Assembly (NCBI GenBank): GCA_964416505.1
Contig: CAYQEJ010000001.1
Coordinates: forward strand, 77,774-141,773
Length of the DNA stretch: 64,000 bases
Direction: 5' to 3'
Source of the DNA: an uncultured Gammaproteobacteria bacterium
GTDB lineage: Bacteria > Patescibacteriota > Microgenomatia > Levybacterales > UBA12049
The notes below the pieces were generated by a model. It was not told the origin of the DNA. It did no database searches and saw only the letters and a program-made list of their open reading frames with translations. Below are positions 5,810 to 27,217 of the stretch, piece by piece (position 1 is the first letter of the stretch; every line of letters begins with the position of its first letter). The translations under genes and the position numbers were made by a program.

Positions 5810-7105
5810 GTGAATTTAATTCTTGTCATTTTAGGAAAACTTTTCATAACTACCTCACAAATTTTTAATCTTGGGAATGGCTCCACATGGCCGGGTCATA
5901 TAGCTTTAAGCACAAATCCAAAATTCATAAAAGAATCTTTAAAAAAAACAAAAACAAAAATTATTTTGGTCGCTGGTACTAATGGAAAAACCACTACAGG
6001 TGCTCTAATTTCACACATATTTCTTGGAAATAACAAATCAGTGATTCACAATTCCTCAGGAGCAAATCTTTTAAATGGATTAGCTTCAGCGATTATTTCA
6101 TCCTATAACATTAGCTTCGCAAGGCCAGGCCTTGCGAGGCTAGATGCAGATTATTTAGTATTTGAAGTTGATGAAAATGCACTTCCAAAAGTTTTAGAAA
6201 ATTTAACTCCAAATTACGTTATTTGCTTAAACCTTTTTAGAGACCAATTGGATAGATATGGAGAAATTGATTCGATATCAAGGAGATGGAAAGAAGCATT
6301 TAGAAAAATAGATGATAGGACAACGCTTATCTTAAACGCAGATGATCCACAAATCTCCTATCTTGGAAAAGATACAAATGCAAAAATAAAATATTTTGGA
6401 CTTGACGAAAAAGGAATTGATGTAACAAAACATGGTGCTGACTCTATTTACTGTCCCAAATGCTCTACCAAGTTAAACTACGAAAAAGTGTTTTATTCTC
6501 ACTTGGGAATTTGGAATTGTCCAAATTGCAAAATTAAAAGACCATCTCCTGAAAATATAGAAATTTCCTCAAATCCCCTTCCAGGAATTCATAACAAATA
6601 CAATCTTCAAGCGGCTATTACTGTCGCTCTTTCTGAAAACACAAGTCAAATCTTAATTAATGACGCATTAAATAAATTTACTCCAGCATTTGGAAGAGGC
6701 GAAAAGATTGTTTATAAAGGGAAAACGATTCAATTATTCTTATCAAAAAACCCAACAAGCTTTAATCAGAGTCTTGATACTATTAAGGATTTGGGTGGAA
6801 AAAACATTATGTTTATCTTAAACGACGCGATTCCCGATGGAAAAGATATAAGCTGGATTTGGGATATTAATCTGGAAGAAATCCTTACAAAGGACATGAA
6901 CATAGGTGTAACTGGTAACAGAATGCTGGATATGAGTCTAAGAATTAAATATAGTGAATTTTTTGCACATCATAATACGAATACACAAATCCTATTAGAC
7001 AATATGGTAAATTCTTTAGATTCAGACGAAACTCTTTATATTCTCCCAAACTACTCAGCAATGCTCGATATTAGAAAAATTCTAACAGGCAAAAAAATCT
7101 TATGA
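5810..7105 (+). CDS. murT: Lipid II isoglutaminyl synthase subunit MurT (Mur-ligase-like, with Cys4 zinc ribbon and DUF1727)
   Basis: Mur ligase P-loop VAGTNGKTTT. Cys4 ribbon CPKCSTKLNYEKVFYSHLGIWNCPNCKIKRP, equivalent to the S. aureus MurT ribbon. The stop overlaps the gatD start (ATGA). Contains an in-frame copy of the palindromic repeat at 6102-6143. Confidence 0.8.
   Translation: MNLILVILGKLFITTSQIFNLGNGSTWPGHIALSTNPKFIKESLKKTKTKIILVAGTNGKTTTGALISHIFLGNNKSVIHNSSGANLLNGLASAIISSYNISFARPGLARLDADYLVFEVDENALPKVLENLTPNYVICLNLFRDQLDRYGEIDSISRRWKEAFRKIDDRTTLILNADDPQISYLGKDTNAKIKYFGLDEKGIDVTKHGADSIYCPKCSTKLNYEKVFYSHLGIWNCPNCKIKRPSPENIEISSNPLPGIHNKYNLQAAITVALSENTSQILINDALNKFTPAFGRGEKIVYKGKTIQLFLSKNPTSFNQSLDTIKDLGGKNIMFILNDAIPDGKDISWIWDINLEEILTKDMNIGVTGNRMLDMSLRIKYSEFFAHHNTNTQILLDNMVNSLDSDETLYILPNYSAMLDIRKILTGKKIL
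6102..6143. repeat. Palindromic GC-rich repeat copy R1 (CCTATAACA-TTAGCTTCGCAAGGCCAGGCCTTGCGAGGCTAG), in-frame inside murT
   Basis: Near-perfect inverted repeat TAGCTTCGCAAGGCC-A-GGCCTTGCGAGGCTA read directly from the sequence. Encodes ...SYNISFARPGLARLDA..., about 10 aa more than staphylococcal MurT has in the equivalent loop. Confidence 0.8.
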
Positions 7106-8767: not shown

Positions 8768-10201
8768 ATGCTAAATAAACTTACCATAAAGAAAGCACAA
8801 GAAGGACTTAAAAATAAAGATTTTTCCTCAGTTGAGCTCGTAAAAGCTTGTTTCGATCAAATTAAAAAGACGAACAATAAATTAAATGTTTTTATTACTC
8901 TTACTGAAGAAGAAGCACTGAAATCTGCAAAAGAAGCCGATAGTGAGATAGCCTCGCAAGGCCAGGCCTTGGAGGCTAGGCCTTTATTGGGAATCCCTAT
9001 TGCGCTAAAAGATATGTTTAATGCAAAAGGAATAAAAACTACTGCCGGATCAAATGTTCTAAGTGATTATTTTTCCTCATATGATTCCACAGTAGTAAAA
9101 AAGCTGAAAGACGCAGGTGCTGTTATAATCGGAAAAACCAATCAGGATGCCTGGGCTCATGGATCAAGCGGAGAAAATTCAGACTTCAAACCTACTAAGA
9201 ATCCATGGAATTTAGACTATGTACCAGGTGGCTCAAGTAGCGGATCAGCTGCTGCTGTTGCATCAAATATGTCTCTCGCTTCTACTGGAACAGATACAGG
9301 AGGCTCAATTAGGCTCCCTGCAAGCTTTACAAATACCGTAGGTTTAAAACCGACGTATGGAAGAGTCTCTAGGTATGGAATAGTAGCAATGGCATCATCT
9401 CATGATTCAATTGGACATTTTACAAAAACTGTCGAAGACTCAGCGATATTTCTTGAAGCTACTGCTGGCCATGATCCACATGACGCCACAACTTCATCAA
9501 AACAAGTTCCGAATTACACAAAATCTTTAAGCAAGGAAGTTAAAGGAATGAAAATAGGATTTCATTCAGATTTTTTTGACAAAGATATAGACAAAGAGAT
9601 TGGCGAAAATTATAAGGAAACTGTGGAAAAACTTAAAGAATTAGGCGCTGAAATGGTGGATTTGCCTTCCATTTATTCAAATAATTTTGTATCAGCATAT
9701 TACATAATTCAACCTGCAGAAGTATCCTCAAACCTTGCAAGATATGACGGAATTAGGTTTGGATTATCTAGACAGAATTTTGGAGAAGAAGCAAAAAGAA
9801 GAATAATGCTTGGGACTTACGTTCTTTCATCAGGATATTATGATCAATATTATAATAAGGCTTCAAAAATCCGATCCAAACTTATAAACGATTTAGGTAA
9901 AGAATATTTTGAAAAGGTTTCAGCTGTTGTTGTCCCGACTTCTCCCACTCCTCCATGGAAGCTCGGAGAAAAAACAGATGATCCTTTAAAGATGTATCTT
10001 TCAGATGTTTTCACTGTCATAGCAAATCTGGCAGGAATTCCTGGCCTCTCAGTCCCGACTGGATTTATGAAAAATAACTTACCAATTGGCATGCAAATCC
10101 TTGGTCCACAGTTCTCTGAAGAAACACTTTTCCAAATTGGATACAACCTTGAACAGGCAACACAAAATGAAGAATGGAGAAAAAAGGAGCCAGAGCTATG
10201 A
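8768..10201 (+). CDS. gatA: Glu-tRNA(Gln)/Asp-tRNA(Asn) amidotransferase subunit A (amidase signature family)
   Basis: Amidase signature [13 protein letters not shown], Ser-cisSer-Lys catalytic context, full-length 477 aa. Contains an in-frame copy of the palindromic repeat at 8948-8982. Confidence 0.9.
8948..8982. repeat. Palindromic GC-rich repeat copy R2 (ATAGCCTCGCAAGGCCAGGCCTTGGAGGCTAGGCC), in-frame inside gatA
   Basis: Same core CGCAAGGCCAGGCCTTG with inverted arms AGCCTC/GAGGCT. Encodes [11 protein letters not shown] in a variable N-terminal segment of GatA. GC-rich island in AT-rich coding context. Confidence 0.75.
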
Positions 10202-21309: not shown

Positions 21310-21723
21310 ATGAAACTCACAGTTGATGTCCTTACTCCCCAAGCACAGATTTATACTGGCGAAGCAGATGAAATATTAGTTCCTACCGTAAATGGACAAT
21401 TAGGAATTCTCCCAAATCACGTTTCCCTTTTTACAAAAATCGAACCTGGGGAGCTTGAAATCAAAAACTCGGGAAAATCTCACTACGTTGCTATCATGGG
21501 AGGATATCTTGAAGTGAATAAAAATAAAGTAAATGTACTTGGAGACTATGCGGTTAGAGCTGAAGATATAGAAATTGCAAAGGTAGAACAAGCCAAAGCT
21601 AAAGCTGAAAAGATGAAACAGGAAAAAATATCTATTGAAGATCTTACCAGTATCGAAGCTGATCTTCGCAGATCAATTTTACAATTGAAAGTTGCTAATC
21701 GCCGCAGATCTTCCAGAAGTTAA
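21310..21723 (+). CDS. atpC: F0F1 ATP synthase subunit epsilon
   Basis: 137 aa with an N-terminal beta-sandwich and C-terminal helical hairpin. Last gene of the operon, followed by a repeat/terminator-like hairpin. Confidence 0.85.
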   Translation: MKLTVDVLTPQAQIYTGEADEILVPTVNGQLGILPNHVSLFTKIEPGELEIKNSGKSHYVAIMGGYLEVNKNKVNVLGDYAVRAEDIEIAKVEQAKAKAEKMKQEKISIEDLTSIEADLRRSILQLKVANRRRSSRS

Positions 21724-21724
21724 T

Positions 21725-21760
21725 CCTATAACTTTAGCCTCCCAAGGCCAGGCCTTTTCT
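21725..21760. repeat. Palindromic repeat copy R3 (CCTATAACTTTAGCCTCCCAAGGCCAGGCCTT followed by a T-run), intergenic 3' of atpC
   Basis: Shares CCTATAAC and TTAGCCTC.CAAGGCCAGGCCTT with the other copies. The right arm is replaced by TTTTCT, giving a hairpin plus U-tract. Confidence 0.75.
21725..21760 (+). terminator. Putative intrinsic terminator of the atp operon, formed by repeat R3
   Basis: Stem CCCAAGG/CCTT(GG) around loop CCAGG, immediately followed by TTTTCT, 2 nt after the atpC stop. Confidence 0.35.
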
Positions 21761-21775
21761 GACTCTTTCAATAAA

Positions 21776-23410
21776 TTAGTATTGAAGACCGCCAGCAGGA
21801 GTTGATTGTGGGTCTAAATTACTATTCCCTATCCCTCTAATTCTAATTATTCTTTTCATCATCTGATCTACTATCACACTGTCGCGAGTCCATGCTTGAA
21901 GAGTACTAGATATTCTTAATGCAAATAAATCTCTTACCAGTGGATTCTGAAAACTTGTTCCGTGTCTTTCTAAAACAAAATCCATAATAGATGTATCCAT
22001 AAAACCTGCGAGTGTTTTAACGGCTTTAAATCTCCCATCAGGAAGAGTAGTAGTGCATTCTTTTTCATAGCTAACTAACATACTATAAAAAAGACGATCG
22101 TATTCTATATTTATACCTGGAGCTGATTTATTAATAAGATTATCCATCCATTCTAAAATCGGCGCGTTGAAATATTCGTGATCAATTAACATTTTAAGCT
22201 CTCCAATAAGACCCGCTGAATGCTTCGGGTCTATCTTTTCAGGATCGATTCCTCCAAGATAATTTGTTATTAATGTATGTATATATTTTTGATTTAACAG
22301 ATCTGCCTGTACACGATCTATTCCTAATACTTCATAAAACCCTCTTAATTTCAAAACCGAAGAACCCTTAATTAACTGATCTATATCATGGTAATAATCC
22401 ATTGGAGCAACCTCATCCTCCATTCCTAAAGCTTCACCAGATACACTATCTAAATCATAGATGCTTCCTACCGTAGAAATGTTACCTTGATGCGGAAATC
22501 CATGAGTTATCCCATTCATATGCATCCTCGCAAAATATCTACCCACCTTAGTGGGTACATATGTTCCTAAAAAACGAAATATATCATCCATCTTTTCAAT
22601 ATCAAAATAATCGGCTTCATATTCCGGATTCTCTTCACTTTTTAGTCTTTCATAAAAGTTTGCGTAACCAAACGCCCTGCCAATTACTTGAAGAAGTGCC
22701 TCTCTTGTTGGCTGCTCTCCTAAATCCCACATTCTCTCAGGAACCTGCATAGCTCTAACACTAAACCTATACTCTGAAGCCTTTGCAAATCCCCTTATCC
22801 TCGCAAGCTCTTCCCTACCTGCTGAATCTAATAAAAAAGGCATGTATCTTGCTAGAAAAATTCTTTTTAAATCTTTTGCGTTCCGAGTCATTGTATACTT
22901 AACTACACTATCTTTAAAATTTGGGATACTTCTTAATTTTCCCAAGTGTGGAAGTTCTAGGGGTTCGATAATTCTAGTCGTTGCTTCAGCTTCAATTCCC
23001 AGCTCTCTGAGAACTTCAGAAGCTCTTACAGTTCTTTCAAGTAAGACTGCATCCTGAAGTCCATGAGTGTCAAAATTTAAAGGCATCGCACGATTCTCAT
23101 AAATATAAGGATCACCGAGAGTATTCCCTTTCACACTGAATGCTGTAAAAAGTGTGCCATATTGATCACCCCATGCTCCTATTTCCTCCATTCCTCTTAC
23201 AACTAACTCGTAGGACCTACCATGCCTATTAGAAAGCTTATAAAGCTCCACTGGGCTTTCTTCTTTGATACTCCCGGAAATTCCTACGACATGAAGCTGA
23301 TGATCATCAAAAACAAAATCAGGAACTTCTCCTGAAGCAATTGGCACATTGACGGTTTTTGCTTTTACCGCCAAAACACTCACTCTTTCACCGTATCTGG
23401 GTCTTTCCAT
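21776..23410 (-). CDS. Hypothetical protein (~544 aa) with a degenerate protein-kinase-like/APH-like catalytic-loop motif; compositionally atypical
   Basis: Long ORF antisense to the flanking plus-strand genes. Rich in R/G/A/E, unlike the K/I/N-rich proteome here. Motif HGFPHQGN...YDLDS resembles the APH/choline-kinase catalytic loop HGDxHxGN...DxE but lacks the Asp. Likely start is the ATG at 23410; the ORF track uses TTG at 23422. Confidence 0.5.
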   Translation of the reverse strand: MERPRYGERVSVLAVKAKTVNVPIASGEVPDFVFDDHQLHVVGISGSIKEESPVELYKLSNRHGRSYELVVRGMEEIGAWGDQYGTLFTAFSVKGNTLGDPYIYENRAMPLNFDTHGLQDAVLLERTVRASEVLRELGIEAEATTRIIEPLELPHLGKLRSIPNFKDSVVKYTMTRNAKDLKRIFLARYMPFLLDSAGREELARIRGFAKASEYRFSVRAMQVPERMWDLGEQPTREALLQVIGRAFGYANFYERLKSEENPEYEADYFDIEKMDDIFRFLGTYVPTKVGRYFARMHMNGITHGFPHQGNISTVGSIYDLDSVSGEALGMEDEVAPMDYYHDIDQLIKGSSVLKLRGFYEVLGIDRVQADLLNQKYIHTLITNYLGGIDPEKIDPKHSAGLIGELKMLIDHEYFNAPILEWMDNLINKSAPGINIEYDRLFYSMLVSYEKECTTTLPDGRFKAVKTLAGFMDTSIMDFVLERHGTSFQNPLVRDLFALRISSTLQAWTRDSVIVDQMMKRIIRIRGIGNSNLDPQSTPAGGLQY

Positions 23411-23425
23411 AAATATAATCAAAGA

Positions 23426-23454
23426 ATTATACTATAAGATATAATCTGAAGCAA
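23426..23454 (-). promoter_or_regulatory. Sigma70-like promoter TTGCTT-N17-TATAAT for the 548-aa ORF (minus strand)
   Basis: On the minus strand: TTGCTT (plus 23449-23454), 17-nt spacer, perfect TATAAT (plus 23426-23431), about 15 nt upstream of the ATG. Predicts a near-leaderless transcript. Confidence 0.45.
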
Positions 23455-23465
23455 TTATTTCTCAG

Positions 23466-23516
23466 CCTATAACATTAGCTTCGCAAGGCCTGGCCTTGCG
23501 AAGCTAGGACTATAAG
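23466..23516. repeat. Palindromic repeat copy R4 (CCTATAACATTAGCTTCGCAAGGCCTGGCCTTGCGAAGCTAGGACTATAAG), intergenic
   Basis: Longest copy. Inverted arms TAGCTTCGCAAGGCC / GGCCTTGCGAAGCTA extend to outer TATAAC/…TATAAG ends. Lies upstream of the 548-aa minus-strand ORF, so R3 and R4 bracket that gene. Confidence 0.8.
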
Positions 23517-25043: not shown

Positions 25044-26213
25044 ATGAGAAAACTAAAAATAGCCCAAATAGCACCAATAATCGAAAGAGTGCCTCCTAAA
25101 AAATACGGCGGGACTGAAAGAGTGGTAAGTACCTTAACTGAAGAACTAGTTAAACGAGGACATGATGTTACTCTATTTGCTTCTGGAGACTCACTTACAA
25201 AAGCAAAACTCGAATCTGTTTTCCCCATTTCTATAAGAGAGGCAAATTTAAAACGTCAAGAAGCTCTTGAATGGAGCATGCTTCATATAGGAAGAGCTTA
25301 TGATATGCAGGACAAATTCGACATAATTCACGACCACAATAGCGCCCTGGGTATGCCACTTGCCAATATCTCCACTACCCCAACAGTAGTTACTCTTCAT
25401 GGAGCCGTCAGAGAATCAACGATTAGAATGTTAAAACAGTACAGAAATCCTAACTTTGTATCCATATCGAAGGACCAGGTAAAATTTGCTGATATAGCAA
25501 AGCATACAGTAATTCCAAACGGATTAGAATTAAATGACTACGAATATTCAGGAACTAATAAAGGCTATCTTCTCTATGTTGGAAGAATATCTGAAATAAA
25601 AGGCACACACATTGCAATAAATGTAGCCCAAAGATTAGATCTGCCTTTAATTATCGCTGCAAAACTTGATGAAGCAGATAAACCTTATTTTAATAAATAT
25701 ATTAAATCAAAATTAAATAACTCAAAAATAAAATGGATTGGAGAAGTCGATAATCTTACCCGTAACAAACTCATGAGTGAAGCGATTTGTTTAGTGAATC
25801 CCATCACATGGAGAGAACCTTTTGGGCTTACTATGATTGAAGCAATGGCTTGCGGCTGTCCTGTAGTAGCTTTTAACAAAGGAGCAGTTCCTGAAGTAAT
25901 GCTAGAGGGTAAAACAGGGTTTATAGTTGAAACTATTGAAGAAATGGTAGATGCGATAAAAAAAATTGAATCCATAAAAAGAATTGAGTGTAGAAATTTC
26001 GCTCTTAAAACATTTAACGAAAAGGTTATGGTAGATAGATACGAAGAATTATATAAAAATATTGCTACAGAAAATACATTTCAAGATTACAGCAGTCTAC
26101 TTGTTTCACCTTCATTCCAAGAAATATTTCGCCCCAGAATCTGGGAATTTCAAGATTTTGAATTTAATTTCGAAACAGAGTCAAACTTAATCGCCTCAAA
26201 AGAAAAAAATTAG
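25044..26213 (+). CDS. Glycosyltransferase family 4 (GT-B fold) protein
   Basis: N-terminal KIAQIAPIIERVPPKKYGGTERVV (GT4 N-domain) and C-terminal EPFGLTMIEAMACGCPVVAF (E-x7-E region). Stop codon supplied by repeat R5. Confidence 0.8.
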   Translation: MRKLKIAQIAPIIERVPPKKYGGTERVVSTLTEELVKRGHDVTLFASGDSLTKAKLESVFPISIREANLKRQEALEWSMLHIGRAYDMQDKFDIIHDHNSALGMPLANISTTPTVVTLHGAVRESTIRMLKQYRNPNFVSISKDQVKFADIAKHTVIPNGLELNDYEYSGTNKGYLLYVGRISEIKGTHIAINVAQRLDLPLIIAAKLDEADKPYFNKYIKSKLNNSKIKWIGEVDNLTRNKLMSEAICLVNPITWREPFGLTMIEAMACGCPVVAFNKGAVPEVMLEGKTGFIVETIEEMVDAIKKIESIKRIECRNFALKTFNEKVMVDRYEELYKNIATENTFQDYSSLLVSPSFQEIFRPRIWEFQDFEFNFETESNLIASKEKN

Positions 26214-26238
26214 CCTCGCAAGGCCAGGCCTTATGAGC
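26210..26238. repeat. Palindromic repeat copy R5 (TTAGCCTCGCAAGGCCAGGCCTTATGAGCG), overlapping the stop codon of the GT4 gene
   Basis: The TAG of the TTAGCCTC arm (26211-26213) is the stop codon of CDS 25044-26213. The right arm is degenerate. Confidence 0.7.
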
Positions 26239-26280
26239 GTAAATAACTATGAAGTCGGGTCTATTAAACTCTCCTCTAAT

Positions 26281-26324: not shown

Positions 26325-26399
26325 GCCGAAGTAACTCAGGGGTAGAGTAGCTCTTTCGTAAAGAGCAAGTCGTGAGTCCGAATCTCACCTTCGGCTCCA
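26325..26399 (+). tRNA. tRNA-Thr (anticodon CGT), CCA encoded
   Basis: Acceptor GCCGAAG/CTTCGGC, D-arm CTCA-GGGGTAG-AGTAG, anticodon stem GCTCT/AGAGC with loop TTCGTAA (CGT), T-arm CGTGA-GTCCGAA-TCTCAC, discriminator T plus CCA. Confidence 0.9.
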
Positions 26400-26404
26400 A
26401 ACAT

Positions 26405-27217
26405 ATGAAATTGAAACACCAAAAAAATAAAAGTGATAATATAGAAAATACTAGCACTCCAGGGGTCACTAAAACGCCTCAGGAAGAAATAAATGTAACA
26501 GAAGCTATGCCAAGACGTTCCCGTTTATCAAAATCGAGTTTTCGCAAATCCAGGAACACTATGATTCTTAGCATATTGGGAATTATTGCAATTCTTTTCC
26601 TGTTGCTGCGATACGGTATTCCCTTAATAAGTGACGCCAGTTTTATAGTGGGACGAGTAACTAGCTCTCCTGACAAAAAAACTATTACAGAAAACGATAA
26701 GTTCCTAGCTAATCCCGACATAGACTTGCCAGAAAAAGCTACAAAAGAAGACCATATAACTATCTCTGGTACTTCTTTAGGAGGAGACAAAGTTAAAATT
26801 TATGTTAACGGAAGCTTTGACAGCGAGGCAGATATCAATGAAGACAGATCATTTGAAGTAAGAATCAAGTTATCCGAAGGTGAAAATATCATTAAAGCAA
26901 AAGCAATTAAAGATAACGGAGAAAGTGAATTTTCAGATTCAGTTATTGTGTCATATATAAAAAAAGGGCCTGAACTTTCCATAGATTCACCAACGGATGG
27001 ATCAGAAATCAAAAATACTAATCCTATTGAAATAAAAGGAAAATCTGATCCAGATACCACAATTACAGTAAATGATTTTCAAGCGGTATCGTCTAGCGAC
27101 GGAGCATACACTTATCTCTTAACACTAAGGGATGGAGGAAACGATATAAAAGTAATTGCTGTTGATTTAGCGGGAAATAAAACTGAGAAATCTATTCACG
27201 TGAACTATTCTCACTAA
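26405..27217 (+). CDS. Membrane-anchored protein with two bacterial Ig-like (Big) repeats
   Basis: Basic N-terminus, one TM (ILSILGIIAILFLLL), then two ~80-aa repeats (…ITISGTSLGGDKVKIYVNG… and …IEIKGKSDPDTTITVNDFQ…) with beta-sandwich-like periodicity. Start is uncertain: ATG 26405 (5 nt after the tRNA) or ATG 26507. Confidence 0.5.
   Translation: MKLKHQKNKSDNIENTSTPGVTKTPQEEINVTEAMPRRSRLSKSSFRKSRNTMILSILGIIAILFLLLRYGIPLISDASFIVGRVTSSPDKKTITENDKFLANPDIDLPEKATKEDHITISGTSLGGDKVKIYVNGSFDSEADINEDRSFEVRIKLSEGENIIKAKAIKDNGESEFSDSVIVSYIKKGPELSIDSPTDGSEIKNTNPIEIKGKSDPDTTITVNDFQAVSSSDGAYTYLLTLRDGGNDIKVIAVDLAGNKTEKSIHVNYSH

Follow-up and report, generated by a model that had tools for sequence, protein, structure and literature searches.

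A gene beside atpC in an uncultured bacterium encodes a predicted SelO-like protein of a large, divergent family

The closest described systems are those of SelO/YdiU, a protein adenylyltransferase-uridylyltransferase (references used here: Pfam PF02696; PDB 6EAC, 6III, 6K20, and 6LNA). SelO was once classed as inactive for lack of the HRD Asp (PMC3281104, PMC8097203), its loop motif being HGV (PMC3281104). In the described enzyme, R176 and R183 (R170 and R177 in E. coli) hold the γ-phosphate of a flipped ATP (PMC8097203). A further case is the NiRAN domain of nidovirus nsp12, a SelO-like NMPylase/RNAylase that transfers NMP or RNA via α-phosphate chemistry (PMC8863163).

The gene analyzed here lies in a stretch of 64,000 nucleotides from an uncultured bacterium, hereafter the window. 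A first-pass annotation, made from the sequence, had described a long minus-strand ORF with the atp operon on one side (plus strand, atpC ending at 21723) and the GDE_C-like and GT4 genes, also on the plus strand, on the other, and this arrangement is confirmed. The mechanical ORF covers 21776–23422 on the minus strand and has 548 aa counted from a TTG at 23422. The start is instead the ATG at 23410, as homologues begin at MERP, and the coding sequence (21776–23410, minus strand, stop codon included) gives 544 aa, the product recorded at NCBI. The TTG start is not conserved, being out of frame in the relative with 92% identity (contig L020). Residue numbers follow the 548-aa (TTG) numbering throughout. 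The comparison with the 92% homologue gives dN/dS = 0.149, and the ORF is a real gene under purifying selection.

The product is best explained as an enzyme of the cytoplasm whose protein-kinase-like fold is of the SelO type. The segment conserved family-wide is a predicted SelO-like core at about aa 45–340 (22403–23290, minus strand). It is followed at about aa 341–534 (21821–22402, minus strand) by a domain that is all-helical in the secondary structure of the model, and whose length and sequence vary among family members. The model is template-free (pLDDT 91.4, pTM 0.89), and two independent structure comparisons of this high-confidence model place SelO/YdiU first by a wide margin. All nine Foldseek hits at E ≤ 1e-3 are SelO/YdiU chains (6e-7 to 2e-5); GSK3 follows at 1.8e-3. 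In the second comparison the SelO alignment spans 278 residues of the model, and SelO already gave the longest alignment (258 residues) with an earlier, weaker model. The model matches a SelO-type kinase-like fold, family-specific insertions included. The protein-kinase-like fold proposed in the first-pass annotation is thus borne out by the predicted structure and the Foldseek check, and in the model the nearest structural neighbor is SelO/YdiU.

Bud32 and RIO, two minimal kinases, retain the catalytic Asp. This residue is missing here, and a minimal protein kinase or ATPase of the Bud32/RIO kind is a highly improbable identity for the product: such proteins align over 160–195 residues, against 278 for SelO, and the faint matches that speak for them, both on the catalytic loop (NCBIfam Bud32, E = 0.08; PDB TP53RK, E = 0.5), reach no threshold and extend over about 30 residues.

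The residues of the putative active site are strongly conserved. Lys98, the proposed β3 Lys, lies in the motif VKGN (23129–23131, minus strand), is shared by all 137 sequences, and would be equivalent to SelO K113 in P. syringae and K107 in E. coli. RAMQVPER (22733–22756, minus strand) contains two invariant Arg, Arg223 and Arg230, with a spacing of 7 residues. The motif singled out in the first-pass annotation, HGFPHQGNISTVGSIYDLDS, is indeed encoded at 22445–22504 (minus strand); it comprises the proposed catalytic loop and DFG-equivalent (H307, F309, G313, N314, D323, and D325), and Phe stands in place of the catalytic HRD Asp, as had been noted. Among 154 family sequences, the HRD-Asp position (F309) holds Phe in 91, Tyr in 48, His in 5, other residues in the remainder, and Asp in none. 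G313 stands where SelO has Asp (the E. coli residue before the metal Asn, D246, is among those mutated in a YdiU study), and in the same 154 sequences this position is Gly in 107 (about 70%), His in 14, Ser in 9, Gln in 7, and Ala in 5. In the set of 137 sequences, K98, R223, R230, and N314 are 100% invariant and D323 is found in 136; D323, D325, H307, R130, S135, R139, E146, and D233 all reach at least 93% conservation, most of them at least 95%. The predicted α-C helix (aa 125–140) contains no Glu conserved at 80% or more that could correspond to SelO E136, the partner of the Lys there; R130, S135, and R139 are conserved within it, and an invariant Glu, E146, lies after the helix. The protein has no C-terminal Cys/Sec redox motif. 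Read along the family, the active site is H-x-[F/Y]-P-H-x-G-N ... D-L-D-S, with neither the kinase Asp nor the SelO Asp.

How far these residues correspond to those of SelO was assessed with hhalign, using as targets E. coli SelO alone and 119 enterobacterial SelO sequences of low diversity. The search for SelO homologues gave only sequences with at least 79% identity, and therefore no diverse SelO profile. The catalytic loop is the only local match (E = 0.004–0.007, probability 6–9%). A low-confidence greedy alignment pairs K98, R223, R230, N314, and D323 with K107, R170, R177, N247, and D256 of E. coli SelO, but because of the 6–9% probability and the low-diversity SelO alignment, the equivalences beyond the catalytic loop are not statistically established. 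The R-x6-R and N-x8-D spacings are the same as in SelO (N314 and D323 are nine residues apart in the family, as are the metal-binding Asn, N253, and the DFG Asp, D262, in SelO). At the level of sequence and with low confidence, the family may keep counterparts of five of the six SelO residues to which a review ascribes the binding of flipped ATP and of the metal (PMC8097203).

With slightly better than even confidence, resting on the model and on analogy, we regard the protein as a SelO-like family member that is probably a protein nucleotidyl transferase. By analogy with SelO, a nucleoside triphosphate would bind in the flipped orientation, a basic pocket of Lys98, Arg223, and Arg230 would bury the γ-phosphate, and Asn314 and Asp323 would hold Mg2+ or Mn2+ at the α/β phosphates. 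A substrate hydroxyl or other nucleophile would then attack the α-phosphate, yielding an NMP-modified (AMPylated or UMPylated) protein and pyrophosphate. The HRD Asp, which γ-phosphate transfer requires, is missing from all family members examined, and Gly replaces the SelO Asp; the acceptor would need the help of another residue, possibly His311 or the nearly invariant Asp325 of the DLD motif. The residue equivalences, the flipped nucleotide binding, the NMP transfer, and the protein substrate are points that we infer from the analogy.

The absence of the HRD Asp throughout the family, the Gly in place of the Asp of the SelO DN pair, and the failure to find a conserved α-C Glu would also fit a non-catalytic pseudokinase, serving as a nucleotide-binding scaffold or regulator. 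We hold this to be unlikely, since the Lys, both Arg, the metal Asn, and the DFG Asp are invariant or nearly so despite a mean column identity of about 14% across the family, which is the pattern expected for catalysis. Moreover, SelO itself was called inactive for the same reason (PMC3281104, PMC8097203).

The family is large. An exhaustive profile search gave at least 506 representative clusters (at 50% identity). Family members range from 158 to 1247 aa, the conserved part ending near aa 350. Other searches returned less. With the 137-sequence alignment as query, a word-indexed search for homologues recovered 6 proteins only, probably because it was swamped by helical tails, and a pattern scan of GTDB species genomes together with a viral-contig scan recovered no relative, with patterns that are narrow and do not prove absence. 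Searches of Pfam, NCBIfam, PADLOC, and PHROGs with the protein, 9 long members, 84 members, and the family consensus gave nothing usable. PDB sequences, searched with the protein and also with a 137-sequence profile, returned nothing beyond low-complexity helical noise and the faint TP53RK/Bud32 loop match. Pfam PF02696 has no match to the window protein (E ≤ 1) or to the family consensus (E ≤ 10); in the 84-member scan SelO is joint top among recurrent Pfam families, through weak matches in 2 members (best E = 0.048) and none in the other 82. These results are best explained by a large SelO-like family, the nearest to SelO/YdiU now known, that was previously unlisted in curated databases and is outside the Pfam SelO model. 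A toxin–antitoxin or defense module was considered and rejected, as PADLOC has no matches and the HTH-containing partners are confined to a distant subgroup.

Many family members are encoded with a dedicated small upstream partner ORF, or as tandem paralogues. At nine family loci other than this one, the small ORF lies 10–20 bp upstream and has a conserved tail, PTxTxxLPPMTxxKG, and stand-alone forms of the partner end exactly at this tail. Such an organization might suggest a carboxylate-adenylating ligase with a kinase fold, resembling the SidJ glutamylase or an NIS synthetase, that would activate the partner at its C-terminus or at a side chain; SidJ offers a precedent, as its kinase fold is reported to carry out acyl-adenylation (PMC6858067). 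Such a ligase is nonetheless quite unlikely here. SelO ranks far above the NIS synthetases in structure score, no member matches Pfam IucA/IucC, neither the window nor its three closest relatives contain the partner ORF, and 4 of the 9 partner assignments are weak (25–30 bits). A broader version of the idea, which is rather unlikely in our estimation, is that the family forms a new catalytic class of kinase-fold enzyme acting on the tail of the small upstream protein with which it would be paired in most lineages, with the window gene as a partner-less offshoot. The enzyme might then nucleotidylate the tail or adenylate-activate it, and, if true, ultrasmall, uncultured bacteria would have here a system that tags proteins or modifies peptides.

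The window gene has no conserved functional neighbor. The catalytic loop of APH/choline-kinase/maltokinase-type kinases is HGDxHxGN, and the resemblance of the H-G-x-x-H-x-G-N loop to it is what favors a small-molecule kinase of this type, acting with the GDE_C-like hydrolase and the GT4 in α-glucan or compatible-solute metabolism. The reading is very improbable. SelO scores twice as high in the structure comparison, no family member has the catalytic Asp, and the window protein has neither a match to APH, Choline_kinase, and related Pfam models nor an HGD-type Asp. The GDE_C-like and GT4 genes are on the strand opposite to the SelO-like gene, divergent from it, and they are not beside its homologues in contigs L001 and L002; contig L020 stops 79 bp upstream of its homologue and was left out of this neighbor scoring. 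Conversely, relatives that have the GDE–GT4 pair (75–77% identity) contain neither a SelO-like homologue nor atpC in the DNA fetched around the pair. The link to α-glucan or compatible-solute metabolism suggested in the first-pass annotation is thus not supported, as the linkage is not conserved. As for its proposal of a pseudokinase or an atypical small-molecule kinase, the first term is apt in the sequence sense, and the second is very improbable for a protein with a predicted SelO-like fold.

The same annotation had suggested that the gene could be a horizontally acquired cassette of atypical, apparently GC-richer DNA, delimited by two repeat copies. The composition of the gene is ordinary: GC is 0.373 and GC3 0.260, within the range of its neighbors (0.32–0.40 and 0.20–0.29), and its Karlin codon-bias distance of 0.230 ranks 18th among 50 genes (mean 0.265, SD 0.064). 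The protein is indeed somewhat Arg-rich and Lys-poor (6.9% and 4.6%, against typical values of about 4% and 9%), but its R+G+A+E fraction of 28% is the same as in the ATP synthase subunits, so that the amino-acid make-up is unusual only in part. Homologues adjoin atpC in three further contigs, sharing 92%, 52%, and 41% identity with the window protein. Typical GC3 and codon usage, together with these atpC-adjacent homologues, indicate that the gene is not a recently acquired cassette. Neither an integrase or transposase among the neighbors nor a target-site duplication was found.

The repeats tell a similar story. An intact palindromic GC-rich copy with a 15-bp stem (23462–23507) lies in the divergent intergenic region, just upstream of a candidate −35 box, and folds with a ΔG of −26.8 to −28.8 kcal/mol (z about −5). 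A degenerate copy (21721–21766, 76% identity) lies where atpC and the SelO-like gene converge, in the spacer between their stop codons, and forms no significant hairpin (z = −0.65). The ORF is therefore bracketed by repeats as claimed, with the reservation that the 3′ copy is degenerate and that the family of five copies is not specific to the ORF: AAGGCCNGGCCTT, the core of the repeat, is found at 5 places in the window, where 0 are expected, and two of the three further sites are in housekeeping genes, in frame within gatA and murT. Both flanking repeats are kept in place in the 92% relative (L020), the core being present in its atpC-side spacer. The flanking repeats do not mark a mobile unit. 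A role of the hairpins as terminators of the gene was also rejected, as the promoter lies downstream of the intact copy, and no significant fold is seen in the 3′ copy. Acquisition as a cassette, for which the repeats at both ends, the strand opposite to that of the neighbors, and the Arg-rich, Lys-poor protein might be invoked, is largely refuted by native codon usage and GC3, by the conserved atpC synteny, and by the repeats in L020 and at the three other sites, and we give it a minimal probability. The gene is best read as a vertically inherited resident of this low-GC lineage, its position beside the atp operon being kept by synteny and not by function.

The sequence proposed as a near-consensus promoter of the gene is present. 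A candidate TTGCTT (23454–23449), a 17-nt spacer, and TATAAT (23431–23426) are found on the minus strand (23426–23454) and are identical in L020, but the −35 hexamer agrees with TTGACA at only 3 of 6 positions, and the site is not listed, being below threshold, in a consensus promoter scan that itself found 7 promoter-like sites against 7.2 expected from shuffled sequence. From the −10 box to the ATG the distance is 15 nt; the leader would be very short, and no obvious Shine-Dalgarno sequence is seen in it.

SelO-type pseudokinases have reshaped the view of the kinase fold, with AMPylation, UMPylation, and, in NiRAN, RNA capping, and the present family would be a second, sizeable SelO-like one, with an altered catalytic loop. 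It offers a target for research on pseudokinases and AMPylation and, by model and analogy, a probable activity for an orphan gene of low-GC uncultured bacteria. The analysis also removes a false lead, as there is no foreign sugar-kinase cassette at the locus.

Compared with known systems, the small-molecule kinases (APH, choline kinase, MTR kinase, maltokinase, and glucosamine kinase) are remote: they need the catalytic Asp missing here, and align over only 165–205 residues, and the linkage to sugar-metabolism genes is not conserved. The NIS siderophore synthetases (IucA/IucC, SbnC, AcsD, and AsbB) score far below SelO, and the family has neither an IucA_IucC match nor a siderophore gene context. 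NiRAN retains the D-N pair, is a domain of a viral polyprotein, and is not among the top structural hits. It is nevertheless another SelO-like kinase-fold domain, and such folds support varied nucleotidyl-transfer reactions (PMC8863163). From SelO/YdiU the family differs by the lack of a significant PF02696 match (10–13% identity), by xGN (Gly, His, or Ser before the Asn) in place of TDN, by a DFG equivalent D-L-D-S with a nearly invariant second Asp, by the absence of an identifiable α-C Glu and of a C-terminal Cys/Sec, by highly variable C-terminal extensions, and by the upstream partner ORF or tandem paralogues of many members. In common with SelO/YdiU, it has a predicted kinase-like fold without the HRD Asp (H-G-[F/Y] as against H-G-V in SelO), a KG-x-G/N motif whose Lys is invariant, the pair of invariant Arg at a distance of 7 residues, an invariant Asn followed 9 residues on by a DFG-type Asp, and a helical C-terminal region.

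The minus-strand ORF reported between two plus-strand operons, here called the SelO-like gene after the nearest relative of its product, is present at 21776-23422 (548 aa with a TTG start, a numbering kept for residues below). It lies between the F-type ATP synthase operon, whose last gene atpC ends at 21723, and a GDE_C-like hydrolase and GT4 glycosyltransferase pair. Translation almost certainly starts at the ATG at 23410 (544 aa), because the equivalent MERP/MExP are the first residues in all homologues, the upstream TTG/GTG are out of frame in a 92%-identical relative (contig L020), and NCBI records a 544-aa product with exactly the sequence of the window protein on a contig of 243 kb. Purifying selection acts on the gene (dN/dS = 0.149 and dS 0.26 over 542 codons, against L020). 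The kinase-like motif of the first-pass annotation is indeed encoded, as HGFPHQGNISTVGSIYDLDS, at 22445-22504 (minus strand).

A search of Pfam assigns the window protein to no family, and there is no match among PDB sequences or in PADLOC and PHROGs; the sole NCBIfam match is to Bud32 (12.5 bits), on the loop. A word-indexed search gave six homologues, and an exhaustive HMMER profile search of 1.84 billion representatives gave 506 proteins at E <= 1e-3, 271 of them at E <= 1e-30. Members range from 158 to 1247 aa, with the conserved part corresponding to query residues 1-350, and none of nine long members has a Pfam domain. No published description of the family was found within the limits of full-text searches. 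A kinase-like fold was already apparent in a first AlphaFold model (7 sequences, pLDDT 68) and is borne out by a second (137 sequences, pLDDT 91.4, pTM 0.89). With Foldseek, the nine matches at E <= 1e-3 are all SelO/YdiU chains, followed by GSK3 (1.8e-3); the values listed for other structural relatives of the second model are 14.1 for SbnC, 13.8 for Bud32, 11.5 for MTR kinase, about 10 for APHs, and 9.2 for maltokinase. Hence the kinase-like fold was rightly proposed, but its specific relative is SelO rather than the APH/choline-kinase/maltokinase group, and the idea of a sugar kinase is not supported.

An origin of the gene as a horizontally acquired cassette had been suggested by its composition and its flanking repeats. 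Its DNA, thought atypical and GC-richer, has GC (0.373) and GC3 (0.260) within the ranges of the genes of the window's first 27 kb (0.32-0.40 and 0.20-0.29). Its Karlin codon-bias distance from the other genes pooled is 0.230, more typical than the mean (0.265, sd 0.064; rank 18/50), and from the first-27-kb genes alone 0.296 (mean 0.270, sd 0.060); codon usage does not set the ORF apart. In the product Arg (6.9%) does outnumber Lys (4.6%), an unusual balance for this window, but Arg, Gly, Ala, and Glu together make 28%, the same as in the alpha and beta subunits of ATP synthase. The part of the window that stands out in composition is not this ORF but the block at about 27200-53000, where GC falls steeply (about 0.35-0.40 before it, about 0.22-0.30 within) and minus-strand membrane and glycosyltransferase-like genes are found (Wzy_C, PMT_2, and others). 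Genome GC is low (32%), and it is 33-36% in the three MAGs with the closest GDE-GT4 pair (L005, L006, and L007).

The repeats belong to a palindromic GC-rich family with core AAGGCCNGGCCTT (five exact cores in the window, none in 100 shuffles, no match in Rfam), with copies at 6098-6143, 8950-8982, 21721-21766, 23462-23507, and 26197-26242. Intact copies fold as 15-bp hairpins, as does the one upstream of the SelO-like gene (23462-23507, z about -5). Two copies lie in frame within coding sequences, those of a MurT-like ligase (encoding NISFARPGLARLD) and of gatA, and the fifth follows the GT4 gene. The ORF is thus flanked by two repeats, as had been noted, but the 3′ one (21721-21766) is degenerate and without significant fold. 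Because copies occur elsewhere, including inside genes, and both flanking copies keep their position in the 92% relative, the repeats do not delimit a mobile cassette. They are reminiscent of Rickettsia palindromic elements, which insert into ORFs. The TTGCTT-N17-TATAAT sequence at 23454-23426 (minus strand) is a plausible promoter of the gene, which would then have a very short leader. Its 29 nt are identical in L020, the 15 nt from there to the ATG carrying several changes, but "near-consensus" overstates it, as the -35 hexamer matches at three of six positions and a consensus scan, which yields equally many promoter-like sites in shuffled sequence, did not list it.

SelO-like homologues are convergent beside atpC in three further contigs: L020 (92% identity, 75-bp spacer), L002 (52%, separated from atpC by two small genes), and L001 (41%, separated by a CNNM/CBS gene). 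The opposite flank is not constant: neither L001 nor L002 has the GDE_C-like and GT4 genes adjacent to the homologue, and in L020, which ends 79 bp upstream of the homologue, this flank is unscorable. The MAGs with the GDE-GT4 pair (75-77% identity) have neither a SelO-like homologue nor atpC in the fetched flanking DNA (in L006 10 kb on either side, in L005 and L007 only 0-2.6 kb of upstream DNA). The SelO-like gene is therefore an old resident of the atpC-side position, and gene order lends no support to the link to alpha-glucan metabolism proposed from its neighbors. Typical codon usage, atpC synteny in three relatives, and repeats conserved in L020 likewise speak against horizontal acquisition. 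Glucodextran_B, Wzy_C, and PMT_2 genes are close by in L001, as in the window, where a tRNA-Thr(CGT) at 26325-26399 overlaps the 5′ end of the listed Glucodextran_B ORF (26372-27217), which must therefore start further downstream.

Other loci of the family, outside the window, provide leads. At nine of them the SelO-like gene is preceded, at a distance of 10-20 bp, by a small ORF (L003:791-1480, L004:90-830, L018:1092-1892, L019:254-1036, L021:94-462, L022:5544-5987, L012:738-1124, L016:148-606, and L015:9155-9514); this small ORF is absent from the window, L001, L002, and L020. Its product has about 120-150 aa, or 230-266 aa with an added C-terminal Xre-type HTH (four of nine). It is helical in its N-terminal part and has a conserved tail motif, PTxTxxLPPMTxxKG, at which the stand-alone forms terminate. 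Five are clearly homologous and four weakly so, sharing position and tail motif. This protein could be a substrate or partner. A 258-aa ORF directly upstream of the 41% homologue (L001:8325-9101) matches nothing in Pfam and is not related to these. Twice, the HTH-partner gene precedes tandem SelO-like paralogues (L004:852-4918, 630 and 734 aa; L018:1907-8395, 1247 and 913 aa), a recurring three-gene cassette. The SelO-like gene also directly follows, on the same strand, a ClpB/ClpC-type double-AAA+ chaperone gene in L013/L014 (L013:7133-11428, 10-bp gap; L014:67-2691) and L015 (5998-13049). UMPylation of ClpB and other chaperones by YdiU has been reported (bioRxiv 10.1101/692707), which makes this adjacency an interesting parallel, although it is found in two lineages only.

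In the 137-sequence family alignment, R69, K98, G121, R223, R230, and N314 are invariant; H67, D86, R130, S135, R139, E146, P154, D233, N255, H301, H307, G319, D323, L324, D325, and G329 are conserved in at least 93%, most in at least 95%, and K170 and S326 in 92%. Phe or Tyr, never Asp, occupies the HRD-Asp position, which upholds the earlier call of a pseudokinase with Phe for the catalytic Asp; SelO also lacks this Asp, having HGV (PMC3281104). In SelO, Lys113, Arg176, and Arg183 touch the gamma-phosphate of the flipped ATP, Glu136 stabilizes the Lys113 contact, and Asn253 and Asp262 are metal ligands (PMC8097203). In a comparison with E. coli SelO by hhalign, the catalytic loops align locally (E 0.004-0.007), and the greedy mode pairs K98/K107, R223/R170, R230/R177, N314/N247, and D323/D256, with the same Arg-x6-Arg and Asn-x8-Asp spacings. 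The fold and this conservation suggest, with moderate confidence, NMP transfer, in which a flipped NTP would be attacked at its alpha-phosphate. Unlike SelO, the family has no evident conserved alpha-C Glu, no C-terminal Cys/Sec, and D-L-D-S as the DFG equivalent (second Asp nearly invariant), and the Asp before the metal Asn (E. coli D246, mutated in the YdiU study) is Gly313 in the window protein. Pfam SelO does not match the family consensus and matches only two of 84 members, weakly. The family is therefore best filed as SelO-like, outside Pfam SelO: kinase-fold enzymes with an altered catalytic loop.
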